A stretch of 20,000 nt of DNA from an uncultured virus (IMG/VR IMGVR_UViG_3300024279_000006) (taxonomy: Duplodnaviria; Heunggongvirae; Uroviricota; Caudoviricetes): IMG/VR virus record IMGVR_UViG_3300024279_000006, positions 48,066 through 68,065 of that record. One strand, written 5' to 3'. The position numbers were made by a program, and so were the translations under genes. Below the pieces are notes generated by a model. That model saw nothing but the letters and a program-made list of their open reading frames with translations, did not search any database and had not been told where the DNA came from. Numbering within the stretch: the first letter of the stretch is position 1; every line of letters begins with the position of its first letter. This document shows, one piece after another, positions 3,020-20,000 of this stretch.

Positions 3020-3094
3020 ATCTTCTCCCTTTCAGTGCGCCAGCGCCGCAGCGAGACGCCCATGCAAGCAATCACCTAATCCCAAAGTCTCCCG

Positions 3095-11788: not shown

Positions 11789-12408
11789 GAATCATGCGCT
11801 CCAAGTCCGGCGAGAAGCTCTACCGCAATATGACGGTGCGCGTAATCATGCCCGGACAGAAGGACGTAACCTGGCGCGCTCGGGCTAAACCTGGAACGGG
11901 TTACGGTTCAGAACAGTTAGACGAAATGCTTGAGCACGCGGTTAAGCGCGCCGATCAAATGTTCCCGTCTGTCGAGTTTCGGTTAGTCGAGTTGGCTCCG
12001 AATGATTTCAAATTCATTTACGAGGGGAGAAAAGGTATGCCAGAAAAGATTGCGAATCCGTGCGGGTTGTCGGCACAGAGTGCAGCTATCTCGGAGAAAG
12101 TCTGCTCTGTATCCGGCCACACAATCGGTGTGTATCAGGACGGGATTCAAATCACGTCACAGGGAGCCATTCCGAAGGCGATCAAGTTCTGTTCCAAGTG
12201 TGGCTTCGGGCTGAGTGAGATTCGCGGGGATATGGACTTGGTATTTCAGGATGCGGTACGCCAGACAGCCGCGGCGACGCTGGAAGCGAACAAGCCAAAG
12301 AACCCCGGCGACACTGCGCAACCCGGAGTTGGCCCGATTCCCATCAGCAACGCAAAGGATGCCGGCGACCCGCCACCAGAAAAGGCTAACGCAGCGACCG
12401 CTGATTGA
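11785..12408 (+). CDS. Hypothetical protein, possibly two fused units (Zn-ribbon-like C-terminal half)
   Basis: GTG 11785 overlaps the upstream TGA; internal in-frame ATG 12037 with strong SD; CSVSGH...CSKCG. Confidence 0.65.
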   Translation: MRIMRSKSGEKLYRNMTVRVIMPGQKDVTWRARAKPGTGYGSEQLDEMLEHAVKRADQMFPSVEFRLVELAPNDFKFIYEGRKGMPEKIANPCGLSAQSAAISEKVCSVSGHTIGVYQDGIQITSQGAIPKAIKFCSKCGFGLSEIRGDMDLVFQDAVRQTAAATLEANKPKNPGDTAQPGVGPIPISNAKDAGDPPPEKANAATAD

Positions 12409-12445
12409 CGTACACTACTTTTCGATACGCGGTAAGGCATGGCGT

Positions 12446-12498
12446 GCGGGAGATAGCTTTCCAGGACTGATCCTCCGAGGGACTGTCTCCCGTTTTTT
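12446..12498 (+). terminator. Intrinsic terminator-like stem with structured interior
   Basis: CGGGAGATAG (12447-12456) pairs with CTGTCTCCCG (12483-12492, one G-U), followed by T6. Confidence 0.6.
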
Positions 12499-12518
12499 AT
12501 TGTGATAGCATCCTTCCA

Positions 12519-13058
12519 ATGTCTTCGTCACGGAACAAAGTCCGAGTTTTAGCCCTAAAGCATCTTGGAAATAAGTGTGCCAACCCTGACTGTCGGTGGC
12601 AGAACGCAGACGGCTCTTTCGGCTGTGACGACCCGGACATGCTCCAGATCGACCATCCTTCCGGTAGTGGCAATATTGACCGCAAGACAAGGAATCTTCA
12701 CACCATTTACCGAGATGTTCTGAACGTGCCGCTTGGCACCTATCAACTACTTTGTGCAAACTGCAACTGGAAGAAACGGAAACTGAACGCAGAAGTTGTA
12801 GGACGACCCCACACCGAAGCGAACAAGCAACGTATTTCCAATGCACTTCGAGGGCGTATCAGAACAGCGGCGCATCGCGCCAATATATCTGCGGGTGGCA
12901 AAGGCAAGCATAGCGTCCCATGTCCCGAAGAAACGAAGCGAAAACTTTCAGCAATCCACAAAGGCCGCATAATTACGCCCGAATGGAGAGCCAAGATTTC
13001 AGCGACTAAGCGACTGCGCAACGCCGCCGCTCGCGGTCAAGCGGAATTACCCCTGTGA
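12519..13058 (+). CDS. HNH endonuclease with NUMOD3-type DNA-binding repeats (free-standing homing endonuclease)
   Basis: LGNKCANPDC...LQIDHP...YQLLCANCNWKK, then HTEANKQRIS, EETKRKLSAIHKG and TPEWRAKISA repeats. Confidence 0.85.
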   Translation: MSSSRNKVRVLALKHLGNKCANPDCRWQNADGSFGCDDPDMLQIDHPSGSGNIDRKTRNLHTIYRDVLNVPLGTYQLLCANCNWKKRKLNAEVVGRPHTEANKQRISNALRGRIRTAAHRANISAGGKGKHSVPCPEETKRKLSAIHKGRIITPEWRAKISATKRLRNAAARGQAELPL

Positions 13059-14689
13059 CCATAGAAGTACAAAGAGACGAAGGCTCGCGCAATATAAGCG
13101 ACTTTTATGTCCCGTGGGCGCACCAGATTGCCTTTCATATATCTCCAGCAAAATTCAGATTACAAGTTGGTGGATTCGGGAGCGGAAAGTCGAGACCGCT
13201 TTTAATGGAAGCGGTGTTCCATGCGCTTGAGTATCCTGGGAGCAACAGCATAATTTTACGCAAGACCATACCAGACATGAAGCGGACCGTGATTGACAAG
13301 TTCTTGGCGGACGTTCCGCGCTGGGTGTACGAGTTCTACCACCAGGGCGACCACATCGTTTACTTCCACCCGCAACCGGAGATCGGATTAGACGGCAAGC
13401 CGACAGGCAAGATGCTGCAAAGCAAACTGTTCTTTGGTGCCTGCGAACGGGAACAGGACGTTGGAAAGTATCTCTCCACTGAGTACGTCTTTATTGGCTT
13501 TGAGGAATTGGGCGAGTTCTCATTCGCCATTTGGGACGCGCTGGCCGGCCGCAACCGCTGCCCGATACCTGGCGCACGCGCAACGATGGGCGGCGCTACT
13601 AACCCGATGGGTATTGGTTGGTCCTGGATTAAGAAGCTCTGGAAAGACCATAAGCCAGTGCAGGGGATGGACGCGGACAAATACAACCCTGCGGATTATG
13701 AGTTCTTCCACTCGACGGTAGACCAGAATCCAATTTACGCGCAGGACACGGAGTACATCGCTACGCTTGAAAAGTCTCCACTGCGGGACAAGATCCGCTG
13801 GGGCAACATGGATTCCGTCTCCGGGCAATTCTTTGACAATTGGGAACCGAAGCGGCACGTCCGGCCAGCGTCAGACTTCCACTTTGAGGACTGGCAGCCA
13901 GTTTGGATTGGCTACGATTATGGATTCGGCCACTTCGCCTCAATCGTGTTTATGACTAAGGCTTTGCTCAAGCCGCGATGGGACGGTGAGAAGCCCCGCA
14001 TGGTTAACGTTGTAATCCAAGAATTGTGGATGCAGGAAAAGACTCCAGAGTTCCAGACTAACGCACTGGTCTCTTCTATCCCACGCTTTCAAGAACGACG
14101 AGAGATTGCCGCTGGCGAATCGTTTTTTGAGGAAGACCAAGCGAAATTTGAGCGGAGTCAGGAAGGCTATCGGTGGAATATCAGTTCAATCCATTTCTCC
14201 TGGGAGCGGTTCAATCGAACAGTAAGCAATCGTACCGTGGCTGATGAAGTCGGAGATATTCTAGCGGCCGCTGGATTGCCTCGCCCAACCCGTTCAAATA
14301 CTGATCGAATAGCTGGATGGCAGAAAGTCTACAGCCTTCTCGACTCTGATGAATTATTTGTCTTGAATACCTGTACTGCGGTGGCTGAAGCAATTCCAAT
14401 GTTAGTGCGAGACCCGATTCATTTGGAAGACGTTCAGAAACCAAAGGGAGTCAGTCTCAACGATGATTTGGGGGATGCCCTTCGCTATGCGGTGGCGGGG
14501 GCACTACTTGACCCTGAAGATAAACCAGAGCACATTAAAAAGCGAGAGAAATACGCTGCGATTACAGACCCGATGCGCCGCGCCGCTGTAATGTATAAGG
14601 ATTACAATCTAGAACGCGCCAAAGAGCGCAGGCCGCAGAAGCCAATTACAGTGCCGACTTGGTACAGAAGAGTTAAACCAAATGCGTAA
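13055..14689 (+). CDS. terL: Terminase large subunit
   Basis: Walker A GGFGSGKS, Walker B IGFEE, motif III ATNP, nuclease IGYDYG and DDLGDALRY. Confidence 0.93.
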   Translation: MTIEVQRDEGSRNISDFYVPWAHQIAFHISPAKFRLQVGGFGSGKSRPLLMEAVFHALEYPGSNSIILRKTIPDMKRTVIDKFLADVPRWVYEFYHQGDHIVYFHPQPEIGLDGKPTGKMLQSKLFFGACEREQDVGKYLSTEYVFIGFEELGEFSFAIWDALAGRNRCPIPGARATMGGATNPMGIGWSWIKKLWKDHKPVQGMDADKYNPADYEFFHSTVDQNPIYAQDTEYIATLEKSPLRDKIRWGNMDSVSGQFFDNWEPKRHVRPASDFHFEDWQPVWIGYDYGFGHFASIVFMTKALLKPRWDGEKPRMVNVVIQELWMQEKTPEFQTNALVSSIPRFQERREIAAGESFFEEDQAKFERSQEGYRWNISSIHFSWERFNRTVSNRTVADEVGDILAAAGLPRPTRSNTDRIAGWQKVYSLLDSDELFVLNTCTAVAEAIPMLVRDPIHLEDVQKPKGVSLNDDLGDALRYAVAGALLDPEDKPEHIKKREKYAAITDPMRRAAVMYKDYNLERAKERRPQKPITVPTWYRRVKPNA

Positions 14690-15179
14690 AATGTTGGACC
14701 TGAGCGGGAGAACATTCGGGAGATTGAAAGTTCTCTGGCCAGTTGGCAGAGTTCGGCATGTACGCTGGTTGACCGCTTGTGAGTGTGGCGCGATGCGAAT
14801 GGTTGCGAGCCACCATCTCGTAGCCGGTGGAGTACAATCCTGCGGTTGTTTGGTCCGCGATACGAGCCGCGAACTAATGAAACGTCTACCGCAGTTACGC
14901 CACGGCCACGCAATACACGGTAAAATCTCGCGGACCTTCCGAAGCTGGGATGCCATGCGCCAACGATGTTTGAACCCTAACTCAAATAAGTTTTCACGAT
15001 ACGGCGGTCGTGGGATTACAATCTGCAAGCAGTGGGATAGGTTCGAGACGTTCTTGGCCGACATGGGGCCACGTCCGATTAACATGACCATCGACCGAAT
15101 CAACAACGATGGAAATTATGAACCGGGAAATTGCCGGTGGGCTACACCGAAAGAACAAAGAGCGAATCGTTCTAATTGA
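14682..15179 (+). CDS. HNH-type homing endonuclease (YGGRGI family)
   Basis: DLSGRTFGRLKV...WLTACECG...SCGC...HGH...MRQRCLNP...YGGRGITICKQW...DRINNDGNYEPGNCRWAT. Confidence 0.9.
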   Translation: MRKMLDLSGRTFGRLKVLWPVGRVRHVRWLTACECGAMRMVASHHLVAGGVQSCGCLVRDTSRELMKRLPQLRHGHAIHGKISRTFRSWDAMRQRCLNPNSNKFSRYGGRGITICKQWDRFETFLADMGPRPINMTIDRINNDGNYEPGNCRWATPKEQRANRSN

Positions 15180-15187
15180 GGTGCCCA

Positions 15188-15403
15188 TTGGAAGACAAGC
15201 GCGAGCAAATCCGTAAAGCCCCCGACGCACGTCAACAACGCCAGTGGGCGCAAGAAGCGGAAAGAGAAAAAGCGGCCGCGTTTAACGCGATGACCATCGA
15301 AGAAAAGGAACAGGAGTACCGCGAGCGAGCCAGACTCTCAGTACTGAACCTGACGGCTCGGGACAAACGATTTCTGCAAGCGTTGAAAGTGAAAGGTGAT
15401 TGA
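15188..15403 (+). CDS. Hypothetical charged helical protein
   Basis: TTG 15188 after GAGG SD (track start 15176). Confidence 0.6.
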   Translation: MEDKREQIRKAPDARQQRQWAQEAEREKAAAFNAMTIEEKEQEYRERARLSVLNLTARDKRFLQALKVKGD

Positions 15404-15732
15404 TGGATAGGCGAAATTTCATGCGGTCGATACTTGGCGTTGCTGCCGCTACTGCGCTGCCGTCTGAGGTCTGGCCGTTTAGAAAGATATTCCTGCCAGC
15501 GGTTCCCCCGATTACTAATTTCTGGCTGCAAGCGTCGGGCATGGTGAATAATCCCAACGGCCTGTATCGCGTTACCGGAATATGCGTTCCGGCAATTGAA
15601 ATGCAAAATACAATGAATGAGTTTCTCCGCAATCTTGATGCTGTATTATTCAGCGATGGCTCAGGGCGACTTGAACAACCAGTATCATACAAAGACGGTA
15701 TTTGGCATTCGCAGCGAGGATTATTTACATGA
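15403..15732 (+). CDS. Protein with twin-arginine (Tat)-like N-terminal signal
   Basis: MDRRNFMRSILGVAAATALP resembles the S/T-RR-x-F-L-K consensus; AAAGGTGA SD. Confidence 0.65.
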   Translation: MDRRNFMRSILGVAAATALPSEVWPFRKIFLPAVPPITNFWLQASGMVNNPNGLYRVTGICVPAIEMQNTMNEFLRNLDAVLFSDGSGRLEQPVSYKDGIWHSQRGLFT

Positions 15733-16127
15733 GTTGGACTGACCTTCTCCGTTCTCGCTACGTCCGCGCTCTGGAAGCTGAACTGGCCACGTTACGCCAG
15801 CGACACATAGACGAATTGGAGCGGCTAAAAACTGTTCACGCCGAAGAACTGAATCGGTGTATTGTAGAGGCGAATCGGGGCTGGGCGGAAGCGGATCGCC
15901 TGCGGCAATACCTGATTCCTGGTCTTCCCGTTGCGAACCGCGTCACAGAACCACCGAACAATAACCCGCCTGAAGCCACGCAAGTTGAAAGTGGCACCCC
16001 GTACCAACGGTTACTCAAGAAGCGATTGAAAGAAATTGCCGAAGCGAACGCCGCAGCCGAAGCCGCACAAAGGGCTGCATTGCAGGCAAAGACAGAAACG
16101 CCGGTCACTCCGGCACAGGAGAACTAA
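15729..16127 (+). CDS. Coiled-coil hypothetical protein
   Basis: ATG 15729 overlaps the upstream TGA; heptad-like RALEAELATLRQRH. Confidence 0.7.
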   Translation: MSWTDLLRSRYVRALEAELATLRQRHIDELERLKTVHAEELNRCIVEANRGWAEADRLRQYLIPGLPVANRVTEPPNNNPPEATQVESGTPYQRLLKKRLKEIAEANAAAEAAQRAALQAKTETPVTPAQEN

Positions 16128-16128
16128 C

Positions 16129-16554
16129 ATGGCCGTAGCAGACAAGACCGGAAAGATGCACCACAGCGGAGGGCGCGCACGCCTTGCTGACTCGATGGCC
16201 GGAGACAAGCCCAAACCGAAACCGATGGAGAAGAAGCCCGAAGCCGCGGCCGACGACGACGGCAATTCCGAAGACATTGAATCCGTTGTGAAGAAGCACG
16301 GGCCAGCTCACCACGTCGAGTACGACAAAGACAAAGAGACCGGGAAGCACAAGGTCAAATCTGTCCACGGCGAACAGAACGTGGAGCATGAATCGGAGTT
16401 TGACTCCGAACCGGAAGCCCACGTACACGTTGGCAAAGCGATGGGCGGCAGTCCTGCCGAAGAAGACCCGGACGAAGAGATGGGCGACGAAGCTGGCGAG
16501 ATCATGCCGGAGATGGAACACAAGTCGCACGGCCACATCCCTGGACTTGGATAA
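16129..16554 (+). CDS. His/Glu-rich, largely disordered protein
   Basis: ATG 16129 with AGGAG SD; many His within acidic tracts. Confidence 0.75.
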   Translation: MAVADKTGKMHHSGGRARLADSMAGDKPKPKPMEKKPEAAADDDGNSEDIESVVKKHGPAHHVEYDKDKETGKHKVKSVHGEQNVEHESEFDSEPEAHVHVGKAMGGSPAEEDPDEEMGDEAGEIMPEMEHKSHGHIPGLG

Positions 16555-16560
16555 AACCCT

Positions 16561-16749
16561 GTGCCATCTAAAGACATCATGCCGTTGTTTCGGCGGGGAG
16601 AATTGCACTCAGGCGGTAGCGGGAAGATCGTGAGCAACCCGCGCCAAGCCAAAGCAATTCTCCTGTCTTATTTGCGGAAGGAAGGCCACGACATACCGGA
16701 GAAGCGCGATGGCCCGATGGTGACTGCGTTCAAGAAAGCAAAACGATGA
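16561..16749 (+). CDS. DUF6496-like small basic protein
   Basis: FRRGELHSGGSGKIVSNPRQAKAILLSYLRKEG resembles the family motif FKxGxLHSG..G..V.S.KQAIAIALS. Confidence 0.7.
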   Translation: MPSKDIMPLFRRGELHSGGSGKIVSNPRQAKAILLSYLRKEGHDIPEKRDGPMVTAFKKAKR

Positions 16750-16958
16750 AACCCTGCGAATATCGGATTGACGCTAACACCCGCTGCGGCCAACCTGCCA
16801 CGTGTGTAATCAAAATAAGCGAAGGCAAATTATCCATTAAAAACGAAGACGGTGATGACATTGGCCGTGGCGTCGGGAGTTTTTACGCTCCTATCTGTGA
16901 CCTGCACAAGTCCTGCTATCCTGACCACGACGGATTTGAGTTGGAGCCTGCACGATGA
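16746..16958 (+). CDS. Small Cys-containing hypothetical protein
   Basis: C-x8-CGQPA...ICDLH; ATGA overlap. Confidence 0.65.
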   Translation: MKPCEYRIDANTRCGQPATCVIKISEGKLSIKNEDGDDIGRGVGSFYAPICDLHKSCYPDHDGFELEPAR

Positions 16959-17101
16959 GGATTCCGTCCGCTGGAAGAACTGGCAGCGCACGCCCTGACA
17001 GCGCAACCGGGGATCGATACCCGGATGGGACTAGAGCATCCCTTCTTCCTAAGCCCCTAGCTCGGGGTGCAGAAGCGCACAGCGGAACGGATGGCGTGCA
17101 G
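16948..17101 (+). ncRNA. Candidate structured RNA upstream of the portal (alternative: 50-aa ORF 16955..17107)
   Basis: Nested complementary segments 16948-54/17095-101, 16963-72/17081-91, 16973-79/17043-49, 17007-11/17020-24 and 17053-57/17064-68. Confidence 0.4.
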
Positions 17102-17135
17102 TTTTAGTGTAGACTTTTCTCGCAGCACAATCGGG
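17100..17135 (+). promoter_or_regulatory. Repeated motif copy 1 (putative late promoter)
   Basis: AGTTTT-AG-TGTAGACTTT-N11-AATCGGG; second copy at 19595-19630. Confidence 0.6.
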
Positions 17136-17150
17136 TGATTGCGGGGAGTA

Positions 17151-19595
17151 GTGGCAACAGCCGTTCTTGAACAAGAGAAGACTGAAGCGCTTGCGCCAGT
17201 TGAATATAATCCTGGTGTCCTTGCCGGTATTGAGTTTGACGGCACCACGTTTGGCAAGATCGACCTAACCGACGCCGAGAAGAGAGAATTAAAAGCCCTC
17301 ATCACCAAAGCCTGCAAACGGGATTATCCGGCTCGCCTAATCGAAGTAATCCAAGCATGGGAAGCGGCACTCTTCTATCGTGGTTTCCAGTTCCTCATCC
17401 CGCGTGTTGGTGGCGGATGGGAAATTCCTGGCGAGTCTACCGGATACGGCCCGTCGATGCAGATGGACTTGGCGCTCCTGCCGACGAACATTTATTCCGC
17501 CTACGCTCAAATTATTATTTCCTCGCTTACCCGCGCGGTCCCTAATGTACGGTTTGAACCGCAAGATGCTGACAACGATGCGCAGATTACCGCGACGGAA
17601 GCAGCGGATAAATTCGTCAAGGTAGTCTCCCGCAACAATGACCTAACGATGGTGCAGACAGATGCGGCGCGCTACTTCTGGACTGACGGCCGCGCACTGT
17701 ACTACACCCGTTTTGTCAAAGATGGCCAGCGCTTCGGATGGGAAGAAGAAGACCAGAACGATGACATCGTGCCGGAGAACGAGCCGGGAACCGAAGAGAC
17801 TCAGCAAGCGGTAGAAGTGGCGAACCAAGCCGAAGATAACCAGCCAGTAGCGAACCGCAAGCCCCGCGGTCAAGAGGTGCGCACCTGCCACGGCAAACTG
17901 GAAGTGAAGCTCTCGCCGATGATGGCGAACGATCTGGAAGACGTAGATGTGTTGCAGTACGAAATGGAAGTAGATACCACGCGCGCCAAAGGAATGTTCC
18001 CCTGGGTAGCGAAAGACATTAAGGCCGGAGCCAACGGAGTTTCTGAAGGGGAGATTGCGAAGCTGGCGCGGCTGAACGTGAAATTAGGGATGCAGTCCAC
18101 CTACATCACGTCGGACTCAATCGCGGAAGATGTGACCATTCAGCGGAGTTGGTTGCGTCCGTCGTACCTGATGGGGATTGACGACGTAACGGTTCGGGAT
18201 TCGATCATTCAGAAATGCCCGGATGGGGTGCTGGTAGTCTACGCTGGCGAAACATTCTGCTTTGCGCGTAATGAGTCGATGGATGACTGCTGGGCGCTCG
18301 GGCAGGCGTACTCCGGCGACGGCCAGAACCGCAACGCGATGGGCACGTCCATGATGCCATTGCAGAAGCGGCTGAATAACTGGCTGGACCTGATGAACGA
18401 TGGATTTGTCCGTGCCATTCCGAAAAAGTGGATGCACAACAAAGCGTTCAACGTTGAGGCGCTACGCCAGCAGACCAACGTACCGGGAGACATCGGCGCG
18501 TTCATGCCGCAAGCCGGTCTGACGCCAGACCAGTTGATTTTCGTTGAGCCAGCAGTACAGATGCCGGCGTCCCTGCCGGAGTTCATTAATTCGTACAAAG
18601 GCGACTTCGCGGAGTTGGTAACTGGCGGGTATCCTGCGCTCGCCGGCGGCGACACTGGTGCGAACGACACAAAGGGCGGCATCGCTATTCAGCGCGACCA
18701 GGCGCTCGGGCGCATCGGCCCGACCTGGCACACGATTCAGAACATGGAAGCCACGGCCATGCGGCAAGCGGTACGGTGGGGAGCCAAGTGCCGCGACAAG
18801 AGTATCAATGAGCGGATTCCCGGAGCCGACGCAATCCGTCTGGAAATTAACGATCTGAAAGCCAACATCCTATGCTTCCCGGAAGCCAATGAGAACTTCC
18901 CGGAGACCTACACACAGAAACAGAATCGGCTGATGGGATTGCTGGACGGCTCCGCGAAGAACCCAGCATTGCAGGAAGTATTCTTTAACCCTGCGAACCT
19001 TGTTTTCCTAAAGCGCATGGTGGCGCTCGATGACCTTTACATCCCGCAAGCGGCATCCTATGAAAAGCAATTGGGAGAAATTGAAATTCTACTTAAAACG
19101 TCCCCGCCGCCAAATCCAGAGGTTGTGGAACTTGAGCAGAAGATTCAAGCGATAAAAGATAATCCTGGTGTCGATCCGGCCATGCTGCAACAGGCGGAAG
19201 CGGAGTTGGCCGCACTGCCGAAACAGTTGGTCAGTTCAATCCCAATCTCCGACTACGAAGACCACGCGACCGAAGCGTTTTGCTGCTGGCAGTACATGAA
19301 CTCGCCCGATGGCCGCAAAGAGAAGAAACTGCACCCCGACGAATTTCATAACGTGGAATTGCATTTCGAGGAACACGAAAAGGCCGCCGCAGACAAGGCT
19401 GCAAAGAACGCTCCGCCTCCGCCACAAAAGCCTGTTAGTGTTTCTCTAAACTACAAAGATGTCGCTGATGCGGCTGAAGCCGACGCCATTCTCAGCAAGG
19501 CAGGTATCCCGGTAACACCAAAGCCACCAAACGCCCTGACGCCAGCCGCGCACGCCATGTTGCCGGAGCCGCAACCGCCTGTACCAGTTCAGTAA
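17151..19595 (+). CDS. Portal protein (large, P22-like, tentative subtype)
   Basis: ~814 aa downstream of terL; LFYRGFQF, PTNIY...SLTRAVPNVRFEP, MMPLQKRLN, GIAIQRDQALGRIG portal-like blocks; start GTG 17151 or TTG 17139. Confidence 0.82.
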   Translation: MATAVLEQEKTEALAPVEYNPGVLAGIEFDGTTFGKIDLTDAEKRELKALITKACKRDYPARLIEVIQAWEAALFYRGFQFLIPRVGGGWEIPGESTGYGPSMQMDLALLPTNIYSAYAQIIISSLTRAVPNVRFEPQDADNDAQITATEAADKFVKVVSRNNDLTMVQTDAARYFWTDGRALYYTRFVKDGQRFGWEEEDQNDDIVPENEPGTEETQQAVEVANQAEDNQPVANRKPRGQEVRTCHGKLEVKLSPMMANDLEDVDVLQYEMEVDTTRAKGMFPWVAKDIKAGANGVSEGEIAKLARLNVKLGMQSTYITSDSIAEDVTIQRSWLRPSYLMGIDDVTVRDSIIQKCPDGVLVVYAGETFCFARNESMDDCWALGQAYSGDGQNRNAMGTSMMPLQKRLNNWLDLMNDGFVRAIPKKWMHNKAFNVEALRQQTNVPGDIGAFMPQAGLTPDQLIFVEPAVQMPASLPEFINSYKGDFAELVTGGYPALAGGDTGANDTKGGIAIQRDQALGRIGPTWHTIQNMEATAMRQAVRWGAKCRDKSINERIPGADAIRLEINDLKANILCFPEANENFPETYTQKQNRLMGLLDGSAKNPALQEVFFNPANLVFLKRMVALDDLYIPQAASYEKQLGEIEILLKTSPPPNPEVVELEQKIQAIKDNPGVDPAMLQQAEAELAALPKQLVSSIPISDYEDHATEAFCCWQYMNSPDGRKEKKLHPDEFHNVELHFEEHEKAAADKAAKNAPPPPQKPVSVSLNYKDVADAAEADAILSKAGIPVTPKPPNALTPAAHAMLPEPQPPVPVQ

Positions 19596-19630
19596 GTTTT
19601 GATGTAGACTTTGCCAGTCGGTAAATCGGG
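19595..19630 (+). promoter_or_regulatory. Repeated motif copy 2 (putative late promoter)
   Basis: AGTTTT-GA-TGTAGACTTT-N11-AATCGGG, running directly into the GGGAGG SD of the next gene. Confidence 0.6.
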
Positions 19631-19637
19631 AGGAACG

Positions 19638-20000
19638 ATGCTTGAAGGAATCGAAGCGGTAGCACCAGCCCTTGACTCCACGCCTGCAATAGAAACCACG
19701 CCAGTTGAAACGACAGAAACCACGGATGCGCCAGCGCCCGAAGGTACGGAAGCGCCTGCCGGTGGTGAAGGTGGAGATGCTCCCGTCGAGGGGGCGGAAG
19801 AAACTGAGTTACCTGGCGAACCGGAAGACGAAGGCATCGAGACCGACGCGCGCACGATGGACAAGGCCACGCGCGATACCATTGCCGCGCTGAAGAAGAC
19901 CAATCCTGCCGCAGCGAAGTTGCTGGCCAAGCAGTACTACGGCCGCCAAGCCTACGAAAAAGAATTTCCTACGGTGAAGGACATTCTTTTTCGTAGGCTT
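19638..20000 (+). CDS. Acidic scaffold-like head protein (partial)
   Basis: Not in track (open at window end). ATG 19638 with GGGAGG SD; MLEGIEAVAPALDSTPAIETTPVETTE..., E/P/T/A-rich; immediately after the portal. Confidence 0.7.
   Translation, partial: MLEGIEAVAPALDSTPAIETTPVETTETTDAPAPEGTEAPAGGEGGDAPVEGAEETELPGEPEDEGIETDARTMDKATRDTIAALKKTNPAAAKLLAKQYYGRQAYEKEFPTVKDILFRRL

Follow-up and report, generated by a model that had tools for sequence, protein, structure and literature searches.

The packaging RNA (pRNA) of phage phi29 has paired 5′ and 3′ ends, a central multi-helix junction and complementary loops. The EAR and HK022 put RNAs act in cis in processive antitermination inside long operons, EAR being intercistronic and pseudoknotted. 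A palindromic kissing loop forms the dimerization initiation site (DIS) of HIV-1, and the RNAs ROOL, GOLLD and OLE are linked to phages. The twister, pistol and hatchet ribozymes show a patchy distribution, no constant gene partner and phage-like contexts, and the hatchet and VS ribozymes work or crystallize as dimers. Here we describe an RNA element in a 20,000-nucleotide (nt) stretch of DNA from an uncultured virus of the Caudoviricetes (positions 48,066 to 68,065 of IMG/VR record IMGVR_UViG_3300024279_000006, hereafter the window); the phage record is 68 kb long and is judged complete. From our comparative analyses, we conclude that window positions 16963–17099, on the plus strand, are a conserved structured phage RNA of 137 nt, belonging to a family of approximately 127–149 nt. 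The element is conserved as an RNA on the gene strand, and neither as a protein nor as a DNA palindrome, while the phage record annotates the stretch as a hypothetical protein of 50 amino acids (aa).

In its size, its end helix and junction and the packaging genes nearby, the RNA resembles phi29 pRNA; two loops with covarying complementarity of 4–6 nt may be a further parallel. Unlike pRNA, it has no match to this family in Rfam, occurs in phages with ordinary large terminases and is dispensable in close relatives; it also contains an additional H-type pseudoknot and, in one of its two subtypes (type B), palindromic loops. With EAR and put it shares being a structured RNA in an operon, and with EAR also the intercistronic position and the pseudoknot, but it has no sequence or model match to these RNAs, is absent from relatives that keep the operon and is not followed by an excess of terminators. 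A 9-nt loop of type B, composed of two purines, a 6-nt palindrome and one purine, would be the counterpart of the HIV-1 DIS, although here it is found in the RNA of a DNA phage and not in a retroviral genome, and dimerization is read from sequence only. As in ROOL, GOLLD and OLE, we are dealing with an ornate RNA without an assigned function in which self-assembly is salient, here in the form of a putative oligomer; it is, however, only about 137 nt long and has no Rfam match to those families. RNA-only complexes of these large bacterial RNAs are reported in a preprint (bioRxiv 10.1101/2024.12.08.627333).

Conservation and fold of the RNA

The first-pass annotation of the window, made from the sequence alone, proposed a multi-stem element with tRNA-like parts at 16948–17101, immediately upstream of the portal gene, and suggested a new phage non-coding RNA: a tRNA mimic, a packaging-associated RNA or a switch. 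Folding against dinucleotide shuffles, one of the checks it named, was modestly favourable for these coordinates, which had been picked for their paired ends (z −2.16 on the plus strand, 4/200 shuffles as good), with a similar value on the minus strand (−1.95). Since single-sequence folding is only modestly above shuffles, the case rests on comparison, and there the covariation among relatives, another of its checks, proved strong. The motif is present in 37 IMG/VR phage contigs, corresponding to 28 distinct sequences, which form the rows of the final alignment (A6). The model used for aligning them had the pseudoknot helix built in, and pairing was counted for a structure of 41 pairs in seven helices. 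Standard pairs occupy 84.8% of the cells, compared with 60.6% in column shuffles, and 0/500 shuffles reach the observed value; when the 3′ partners were slid by 1–3 columns as a control, 35.2–43.6% of the cells were paired. The covariation score is 0.623 versus 0.193, and changes on both sides occur in 35 of the 41 pairs. In an all-against-all column scan, blind to the proposed structure, the top 12 covarying pairs all fell within the proposed helices, and RNAalifold independently recovered helices P1, Ha (including its sixth pair) and H3. G.U and U.G cells outnumber A.C and C.A cells (81 vs 23), which indicates that the folded strand is the plus strand, the same as that of the genes. On 16963–17099, covariance model R1 reaches 157.6 bits and model R2 130.1 bits. 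The parts of the element and the features that overlap it are as follows, in window coordinates.

16963–17099, plus strand: complete RNA motif of 137 nt, opening with the P1 5′ strand and closing with the P2 3′ strand
16948–16954, plus strand: CTGCACG, 5′ half of the outermost stem proposed by the first-pass annotation; outside the family, with no counterpart in loci L012, L086, L113 and others
16955–17107, plus strand: open reading frame (ORF) of 50 aa spanning the same bases, judged spurious
16963–16972, plus strand: P1 5′ strand (P1a 16963–66, P1b 16967–72)
16973–16980, plus strand: conserved GGAAGAAC, invariant or nearly so in 28 sequences; its GGAAG is the P3 5′ strand
16981–17000, plus strand: hairpin Ha, stem 16981–86/16995–17000 with a G.A mismatch, and an 8-nt loop containing the P2 5′ strand
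16988–16994, plus strand: P2 5′ strand GCACGCC, pairing with 17093–99
17001–17006, plus strand: conserved junction GCGCAA (family consensus GCGSAC in alignment A6)
17007–17024, plus strand: hairpin H1, CCGGG/CCCGG with loop GATCGATA; the stem covaries, e.g. to GCGGG/CCCGC
17027–17042, plus strand: hairpin H2, GGGA/TCCC with loop CTAGAGCA; the stem covaries
17045–17053, plus strand: P3 3′ strand CTTCC, then conserved TAAG; CCTAAG is invariant in 28 sequences
17053–17068, plus strand: hairpin H3, GCCCC/GGGGT with loop TAGCTC; covaries
17069–17080, plus strand: conserved unpaired tract GCAGAAGCGCAC (family consensus in alignment A6 given below)
17081–17091, plus strand: P1 3′ strand (P1b 17081–86, P1a 17088–91; A17087 bulged)
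17093–17099, plus strand: P2 3′ strand GGCGTGC, pseudoknot partner of 16988–94

The outer helix P1 closes a three-way junction, and P3 then closes a four-way junction with Ha, H1 and H2. On the 3′ side of the four-way junction follow hairpin H3 and the conserved unpaired tract CAGAAG(A/C)GCAC, after which the 3′ tail pairs with seven of the eight bases of the Ha loop to form an H-type pseudoknot, P2, which crosses P1, P3 and Ha. P2 is the best-supported helix of all, with double changes in 7/7 pairs and 94.4% of the cells paired; a scripted check of 29 true sequences recovered all seven complementary positions (7/7) in 25 of them, and a compensatory change separates the window (GCACGCC/GGCGTGC) from L012 (GCACGTC/GACGTGC). 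P1 (TCCGTCCGCT/AGCGGAACGGA) has double changes in 10/10 pairs (88.4% of the cells paired) and Ha, at 16981–85/16996–17000, in 5/5 (86.3%), its sixth pair (alignment columns 38–47) having come from the all-column scan and RNAalifold. For H3 (17053–57/17064–68) the figures are 4/5 pairs and 93.1%, for H1 (17007–11/17020–24) 5/5 and 63.2%, and for H2 (17027–30/17039–42) 4/4 and 74.1%. The low percentages of H1 and H2 are partly due to a register shift between the two subtypes in the alignment; the MAFFT alignment and the first covariance-model alignments were out of register at H1, H2 and the 3′ strands. P3 (GGAAG within 16973–16980, CTTCC at 17045–49) has double changes in 0/5 pairs with 85.7% of the cells paired. 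It is nearly invariant, so that variation neither supports nor contradicts it, and it is a predicted helix, inferred from complementarity only. Altogether, roughly 35 nucleotides of the RNA are nearly invariant and mostly unpaired.

All pairings listed in the first-pass annotation are present in the window, and comparison with 27 other sequences upheld five of its six stems together with a proposed alternative partner. The stem that fell is the outermost, CTGCACG/CGTGCAG: it is peculiar to this phage, the nearest homologue being without a counterpart, and bases 17095–99, for which it competes, belong to P2. CCGGG/CCCGG, GGGA/TCCC and GCCCC/GGGGT are the covarying hairpins H1, H2 and H3, and the first five base pairs of GGAAGAA/TTCTTCC are P3, for which the variation is neutral. 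GCACGCC had been offered as an alternative partner of GGCGTGC; the pairing is real and is P2, but it is a constant pseudoknot and not one of two conserved alternatives, and the suggested switch is left without support. Helix Ha (16981–86/16995–17000), which presents the P2 5′ strand as a loop, had been missed. The tRNA likeness dissolved on closer comparison. The RNA does resemble YrlA and other tRNA-like Y RNAs in being a multi-stem phage RNA with a T-arm-looking hairpin, but this hairpin is H1, whose loop is 8 nt long in the window and whose usual form in the other members is a 6-bp stem capped by 4 nt; H1 is also not adjacent to the P1 3′ strand, and the supposed D-arm consists of the H3 loop and the conserved single-stranded tract. 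ARAGORN predicted no tRNA or tmRNA gene in the window, Rfam gave no tRNA or YrlA match, and a pseudoknotted fold of seven helices is unlike a cloverleaf. That the element is a new phage non-coding RNA is, by contrast, borne out by the strong covariation, the lack of a match in Rfam 15 and an ORF that is not conserved.

In the 3′ flank of most loci (17100–17106 in the window), two to four A usually come directly after P2, with a short run of U behind them (AAGUUU, AAAGUUU, AAUUUU). This A/U flank could be read as an RNase E-like site, or it may be a spacer before the Shine-Dalgarno sequence.

Subtypes and loop complementarity

The family comprises two subtypes: type A, with CUUCC, includes the window and contains nine sequences, and type B, with CUUACC, contains 19. 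In seven of the nine type-A sequences the loops of H2 and H3 hold a Watson-Crick complement of at least 4 nt, and the remaining two have tetraloops. The complementary pairs come in four variants, GAGC/GCUC (window and four others), GAAC/GUUC, CAAAAC/GUUUUG and AUUGA/UCAAU; in the window, GAGC at 17034–37 (H2) is complementary to GCTC at 17060–63 (H3). A second predicted long-range contact of the fold thus involves H2 and H3. Such mutual complementarity, of the pRNA type, could act within or between molecules alike, and type B is without it.

In type B, H3 is short and often capped by a GNRA tetraloop, and the H2 loop contains a palindrome of at least 6 nt in 13 of the 19 sequences, compared with 4.7% of composition-matched random 9-mers. 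UAGCUA accounts for ten of the palindromes, and AACGUU, CAUAUG and CCUAUAGG for the others; all are flanked by purines, and the 9-nt H2 loops consist of two purines, the 6-nt palindrome and one purine (GGUAGCUAG, AAAACGUUA, AACAUAUGA). A DIS-like self-complementary hexamer flanked by purines is accordingly present in 13/19 type-B H2 loops, which would make the RNA a putative dimer. Because a perfect palindrome in a 9-nt loop is unable to pair within that loop, we read it as a pairing signal between two copies. The complementary H2 and H3 loops of type A and the palindromic H2 loops of type B suggest self-association of the RNA.

Distribution, mobility and novelty

Relatives of the 818-aa protein encoded downstream of the RNA in the window provided 56 loci, among which blastn finds the element in the L012 lineage only. 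In L012 the 5′ and 3′ parts of the element are conserved, and the middle is a different sequence of equal length. Locus L086, reached through a match to the 50-aa protein, has a different terminase; about 60 nt in the middle and the 3′ part of its element match the window without a single difference. Further members were obtained with patterns from conserved blocks and then with a covariance model from nine sequences. This model gave 14 matches at E ≤ 2e-16 among 88 sources, the next best having an E of 0.04, and found a divergent copy in L011; 22 of the 27 new loci of the last pattern scan were confirmed at E ≤ 2.4e-9. Loci L140, L146, L149, L151 and L156, without a model match and with poor P1 pairing, were rejected as chance matches. 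The first patterns, taken from the window and L012 flanks, recovered only the same lineage in viral contigs. A pattern scan of metagenomes yielded 12 stretches, of which only copies of already known contigs align beyond the pattern, and a scan of genome contigs yielded six, aligned over the pattern only. No matches were found by pattern search in 401 genomes of one bacterial phylum and three single genomes, a result that is uninformative on the host.

The RNA moves between unrelated phages as a unit, and the borders of this module are the borders of the fold. When the whole window was compared by blastn with 18 other motif-bearing loci, the RNA, at 74–87% identity, and one portal match were all that aligned. 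In a soil metatranscriptome library, a 267-nt contig shares precisely 16962–17100 with the window (92% identity) and has unlike flanks, and a freshwater DNA contig diverges from the window after 17117; window stretches without contigs of runs X16, X6, X8 and X5 carry no meaning in these comparisons. The RNA is single-copy in 6/6 complete or near-complete genomes of 42–119 kb, that of the window phage included. No copy was found at E ≤ 0.01 in 5/5 complete genomes with a portal protein 59–78% identical to that of the window, although the same model found the RNA in 5/5 genomes known to hold it. From its absence in all five complete relatives we conclude that the RNA is accessory and dispensable for this phage group. 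Its carriers are unrelated soil and freshwater phages, in which it is an accessory module adjoining packaging genes.

The RNA always lies on the strand of its neighbours, in the late and packaging gene region, and is enclosed by a stop codon on its 5′ side and the following ribosome-binding site on its 3′ side. An ORF of at least 40 aa ends within 10 nt of the model start in 23/29 loci, and in 19/29 an ORF of at least 35 aa starts no more than 25 nt beyond the 3′ end, the remaining starts being 30–81 nt away; the next start is usually preceded by an A/U-rich spacer and a Shine-Dalgarno sequence. For the wider context, 81 of 133 same-strand ORFs of at least 110 aa were searched against PHROGs, overlapping shadow ORFs having been dropped by eye. 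TerL was recognized within 3.3 kb in 14/26 loci, or 15/27 including the window, and belongs to four different PHROG families (phrog_2/5902, 3717, 38 and 979). The RNA can precede TerS/TerL, follow the portal gene or occupy the interval from TerL to the portal gene: a phrog_156 portal follows it in L113, L129 and L137, two ORFs separate it from the portal gene in L012, and in L147 and L120 a homologue of the 818-aa protein precedes it. The position immediately upstream of the portal gene, as given in the first-pass annotation, therefore holds for the window phage and is peculiar to it, and is not a family trait. The next downstream gene varies as well (portal, DUF6496, His-rich protein, GroES, histidine phosphatase, TerS-like and others), so that the constant downstream gene family of a riboswitch or gene-specific leader is not seen.

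Rfam 15 covariance models gave no match on the element at E ≤ 10 (window 16500–17500) and none at E ≤ 1 in eight further motif-bearing loci, with the YrlA, pRNA and ribozyme families included. A blastn search of 50,697 GenBank phage records with four members gave nothing significant, the best hits being short intragenic matches with an E of 0.4 at best, and we found no description of the motif in the literature. A 2023 study (PMC10690425) describes 8,495 structured RNA candidates predicted from IMG/VR, the data source used here too, in intergenic regions only and with a mean length of 67 nt, which our RNA exceeds; 14 of them precede terminase genes, and several precede GroES genes. The readable tables of PMC10690425 link no named candidate to the motif, its alignment files not having been compared, and the motif may already be among the 8,495, without a name or description. 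As far as family and fold are concerned, we rate the element as a new, uncatalogued class of RNA. The function that this RNA marks is likely one that is invisible to protein-centred annotation. In past cases, complex-folded RNAs that combined a pseudoknot with another long-range contact and dozens of invariant bases have proved to be ribozymes, riboswitches or assembling particles. At about 137 nt, and with 28 natural variants already known, the present RNA is of a size that permits biochemical and structural study directly.

Possible functions

We tentatively favour, with a little less than even confidence, an autonomous folded RNA that acts in trans and is probably a dimer or oligomer. It would be co-transcribed with its neighbours and fold autonomously, P1 joining both ends, and as a free-standing molecule it would bind a protein or another partner, probably as a homodimer or higher oligomer held together by its loops. 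We prefer this reading because the downstream gene is not constant, relatives exist without the RNA and the palindromes need an explanation. A bolder form of it seems possible but somewhat unlikely, namely that the family is a new class of small self-assembling phage RNA, whose copies, joined by DIS-like palindromes in type B or reciprocal H2–H3 pairing in type A, would form an RNA-only particle acting in trans late in infection, for instance as a scaffold or decoy to which a protein of the host or the phage would bind. Several observations weigh against an oligomer acting in trans. The H2/H3 complementarity of type A may instead be an ordinary intramolecular kissing contact, and non-cognate type-A loop pairs also reach 4 nt in 10/68 cases. 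The same hexamer accounts for 10 of the 13 palindromic type-B loops, which leaves the three other palindromes as independent support, and two type-A and several type-B members have tetraloops or other loops. The 267-nt metatranscriptome contig is possibly DNA carry-over and spans both borders, so that no processing is evident. The close spacing to the preceding ORF end (23/29) and to the following start (19/29) would fit a cis-acting leader or intercistronic element equally well, and members from pattern scans are biased to the conserved blocks used as patterns.

The main rival, which we consider rather unlikely, is a cis element of a polycistronic late transcript that would affect translation of the next ORF or exert operon-level control, e.g. 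by processive antitermination. It would account for a co-oriented RNA that fills the gap between two ORFs in the head and packaging region, usually with an A/U-rich spacer and a Shine-Dalgarno sequence before the next start, and in L113 and L117 a promoter-like sequence, recognized by eye, precedes the RNA. A cis role is difficult to reconcile with the changing downstream gene, with a next start 30–81 nt away in 10/29 loci and with a Shine-Dalgarno sequence outside the conserved pairings. An operon-level need is hard to square with the absence of the RNA from five of five complete relatives that keep the same late genes; moreover, window 12000–20000 shows no terminator excess (6 terminator-like sites vs 10.7 expected), and the palindromic loops would be left without an explanation. 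The promoter and terminator scan of the same region found nothing at the element, and in particular no terminator-like site such as an intrinsic terminator would show. A new self-cleaving ribozyme, or another RNA-processing element cutting between cistrons, is less probable again, and we regard it as distinctly unlikely. It would suit the compact pseudoknotted fold with its many nearly invariant, mostly unpaired nucleotides, the patchy distribution without a constant gene partner, the intercistronic position and the dimer signals in the loops, as well as the histidine-phosphatase-family gene near the RNA in L112, L126 and L125. No Rfam 15 ribozyme family matches, however, the metatranscriptome contig bridges both borders, and 137 nt is above the size of most small self-cleavers. 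If the conserved core were catalytic, it would represent a new class of self-cleaving ribozymes.

We consider a phi29 pRNA-like packaging RNA, with copies joined hand in hand by complementary loops and working with portal and terminase, to be very improbable. The association with packaging suggested by the first-pass annotation survives as gene neighbourhood only, terminase and portal genes being nearby (TerL within 3.3 kb in 15/27 loci), and the architecture agrees in its 5′/3′ helix and multi-helix junction, while the two loops with covarying complementarity may be a further agreement. A pRNA would be kept in all relatives, whereas 0/5 complete close relatives have this RNA, which argues against an essential packaging part; the phages encode ordinary large terminases, some loci lack TerL within 3.3 kb, no Rfam pRNA match exists, and self-complementary type-B loops alone give dimers and not rings. 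Least of all do we credit a small 50-aa protein gene, translationally coupled to the upstream ORF by an ATGA overlap, with incidental RNA pairings. In its favour, the ATG and the upstream stop share bases, a GGAG is present 8 nt upstream, L012 and L086 also have ORFs of this frame that begin with ATG, and the frame matching the window ORF is open in 16 of 28 sequences. The first-pass annotation had accordingly raised the ORF as a caveat, which comparison answers, since the ORF is not conserved as a protein. No open frame at all exists in 8/28 sequences, the element lengths of 127–149 nt differ by numbers that are not multiples of three, L113 and L117 lack a start codon, and L112 and L011 contain in-frame stops. 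In L099/L057 (IMGVR_UViG_3300024254_000237), a variant of the L012 type, a 1-nt deletion in the junction after Ha leaves all helices intact and shifts the frame of the ORF. The substitutions compensate within helices, the ORF matches no Pfam or PHROG family, and its translation has just one related protein among 5.8 billion clusters; we therefore reject the protein gene.

Genes around the RNA

The genes annotated around the RNA in the window are listed below.

12519–13058, plus strand: NUMOD3/HNH-type homing endonuclease
13055–14689, plus strand: terminase large subunit (TerL)
14682–15179, plus strand: HNH endonuclease, phrog_374, overlapping the end of the TerL gene by 8 nt
16561–16749, plus strand: DUF6496 protein, among several small ORFs
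16746–16958, plus strand: 70-aa Cys-rich ORF, whose stop overlaps the ATG at 16955; the L036 homologue is 53% identical
17139–19595, plus strand: 818-aa ORF, probably portal; the start called in L012 is aligned to a GTG at 17151

The 818-aa protein is probably, though not firmly, a portal protein. It has no sequence match in Pfam, PHROG or PDB and none to the phrog_156 portal profile, and its AlphaFold model is poor (pLDDT 53). The top Foldseek matches of this model are portal or portal-containing tail/neck entries of the podophages SU10, N4, Pa223 and DEV (best E 4e-8, TM approximately 0.2), and the protein may represent a divergent portal family beyond the reach of sequence profiles. The 70-aa ORF is an insertion compared with relatives: position 16739 is directly joined to 16953 in a freshwater DNA contig of run X8, and the DUF6496-like gene of L012 is immediately followed by the RNA, with no 70-aa ORF between them. 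Both junctions of the 70-aa ORF carry a CGATGA stop/start overlap.

The TerL gene of the window is flanked by two endonuclease genes, 12519–13058 before and 14682–15179 after it. A 110-aa ORF at 15400–15732 starts with a twin-arginine (TAT) signal, scoring 23.1 bits against a Pfam cut-off of 22.7. In L113 and L117 (approximately 2830–2910), the interval after the TerL stop and upstream of the RNA contains, as judged by eye, a promoter-like TTGCTA/TTGCCA-N17-TAAAAG/TATTAG and an 8-bp hairpin. TerL of L137 (1311–2749) consists of two adjacent 240-aa ORFs, corresponding to the N- and C-terminal halves of the PHROG, which is either a split gene or an assembly frameshift. The histidine-phosphatase-family gene (phrog_12933) is located at 3058–3579 in L112, 3140–3748 in L126 and 4708–5325 in L125, directly downstream of the RNA in two of these loci and 1.7 kb downstream in the third. 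Recurrent unannotated small protein families occur within 1.3 kb of the RNA in L121, L125, L126, L133, L134 and L135, among them a His-rich acidic family with the motif HHxDGSHT and families characterized by 'LRKGGLH' and 'LHDFAST'.

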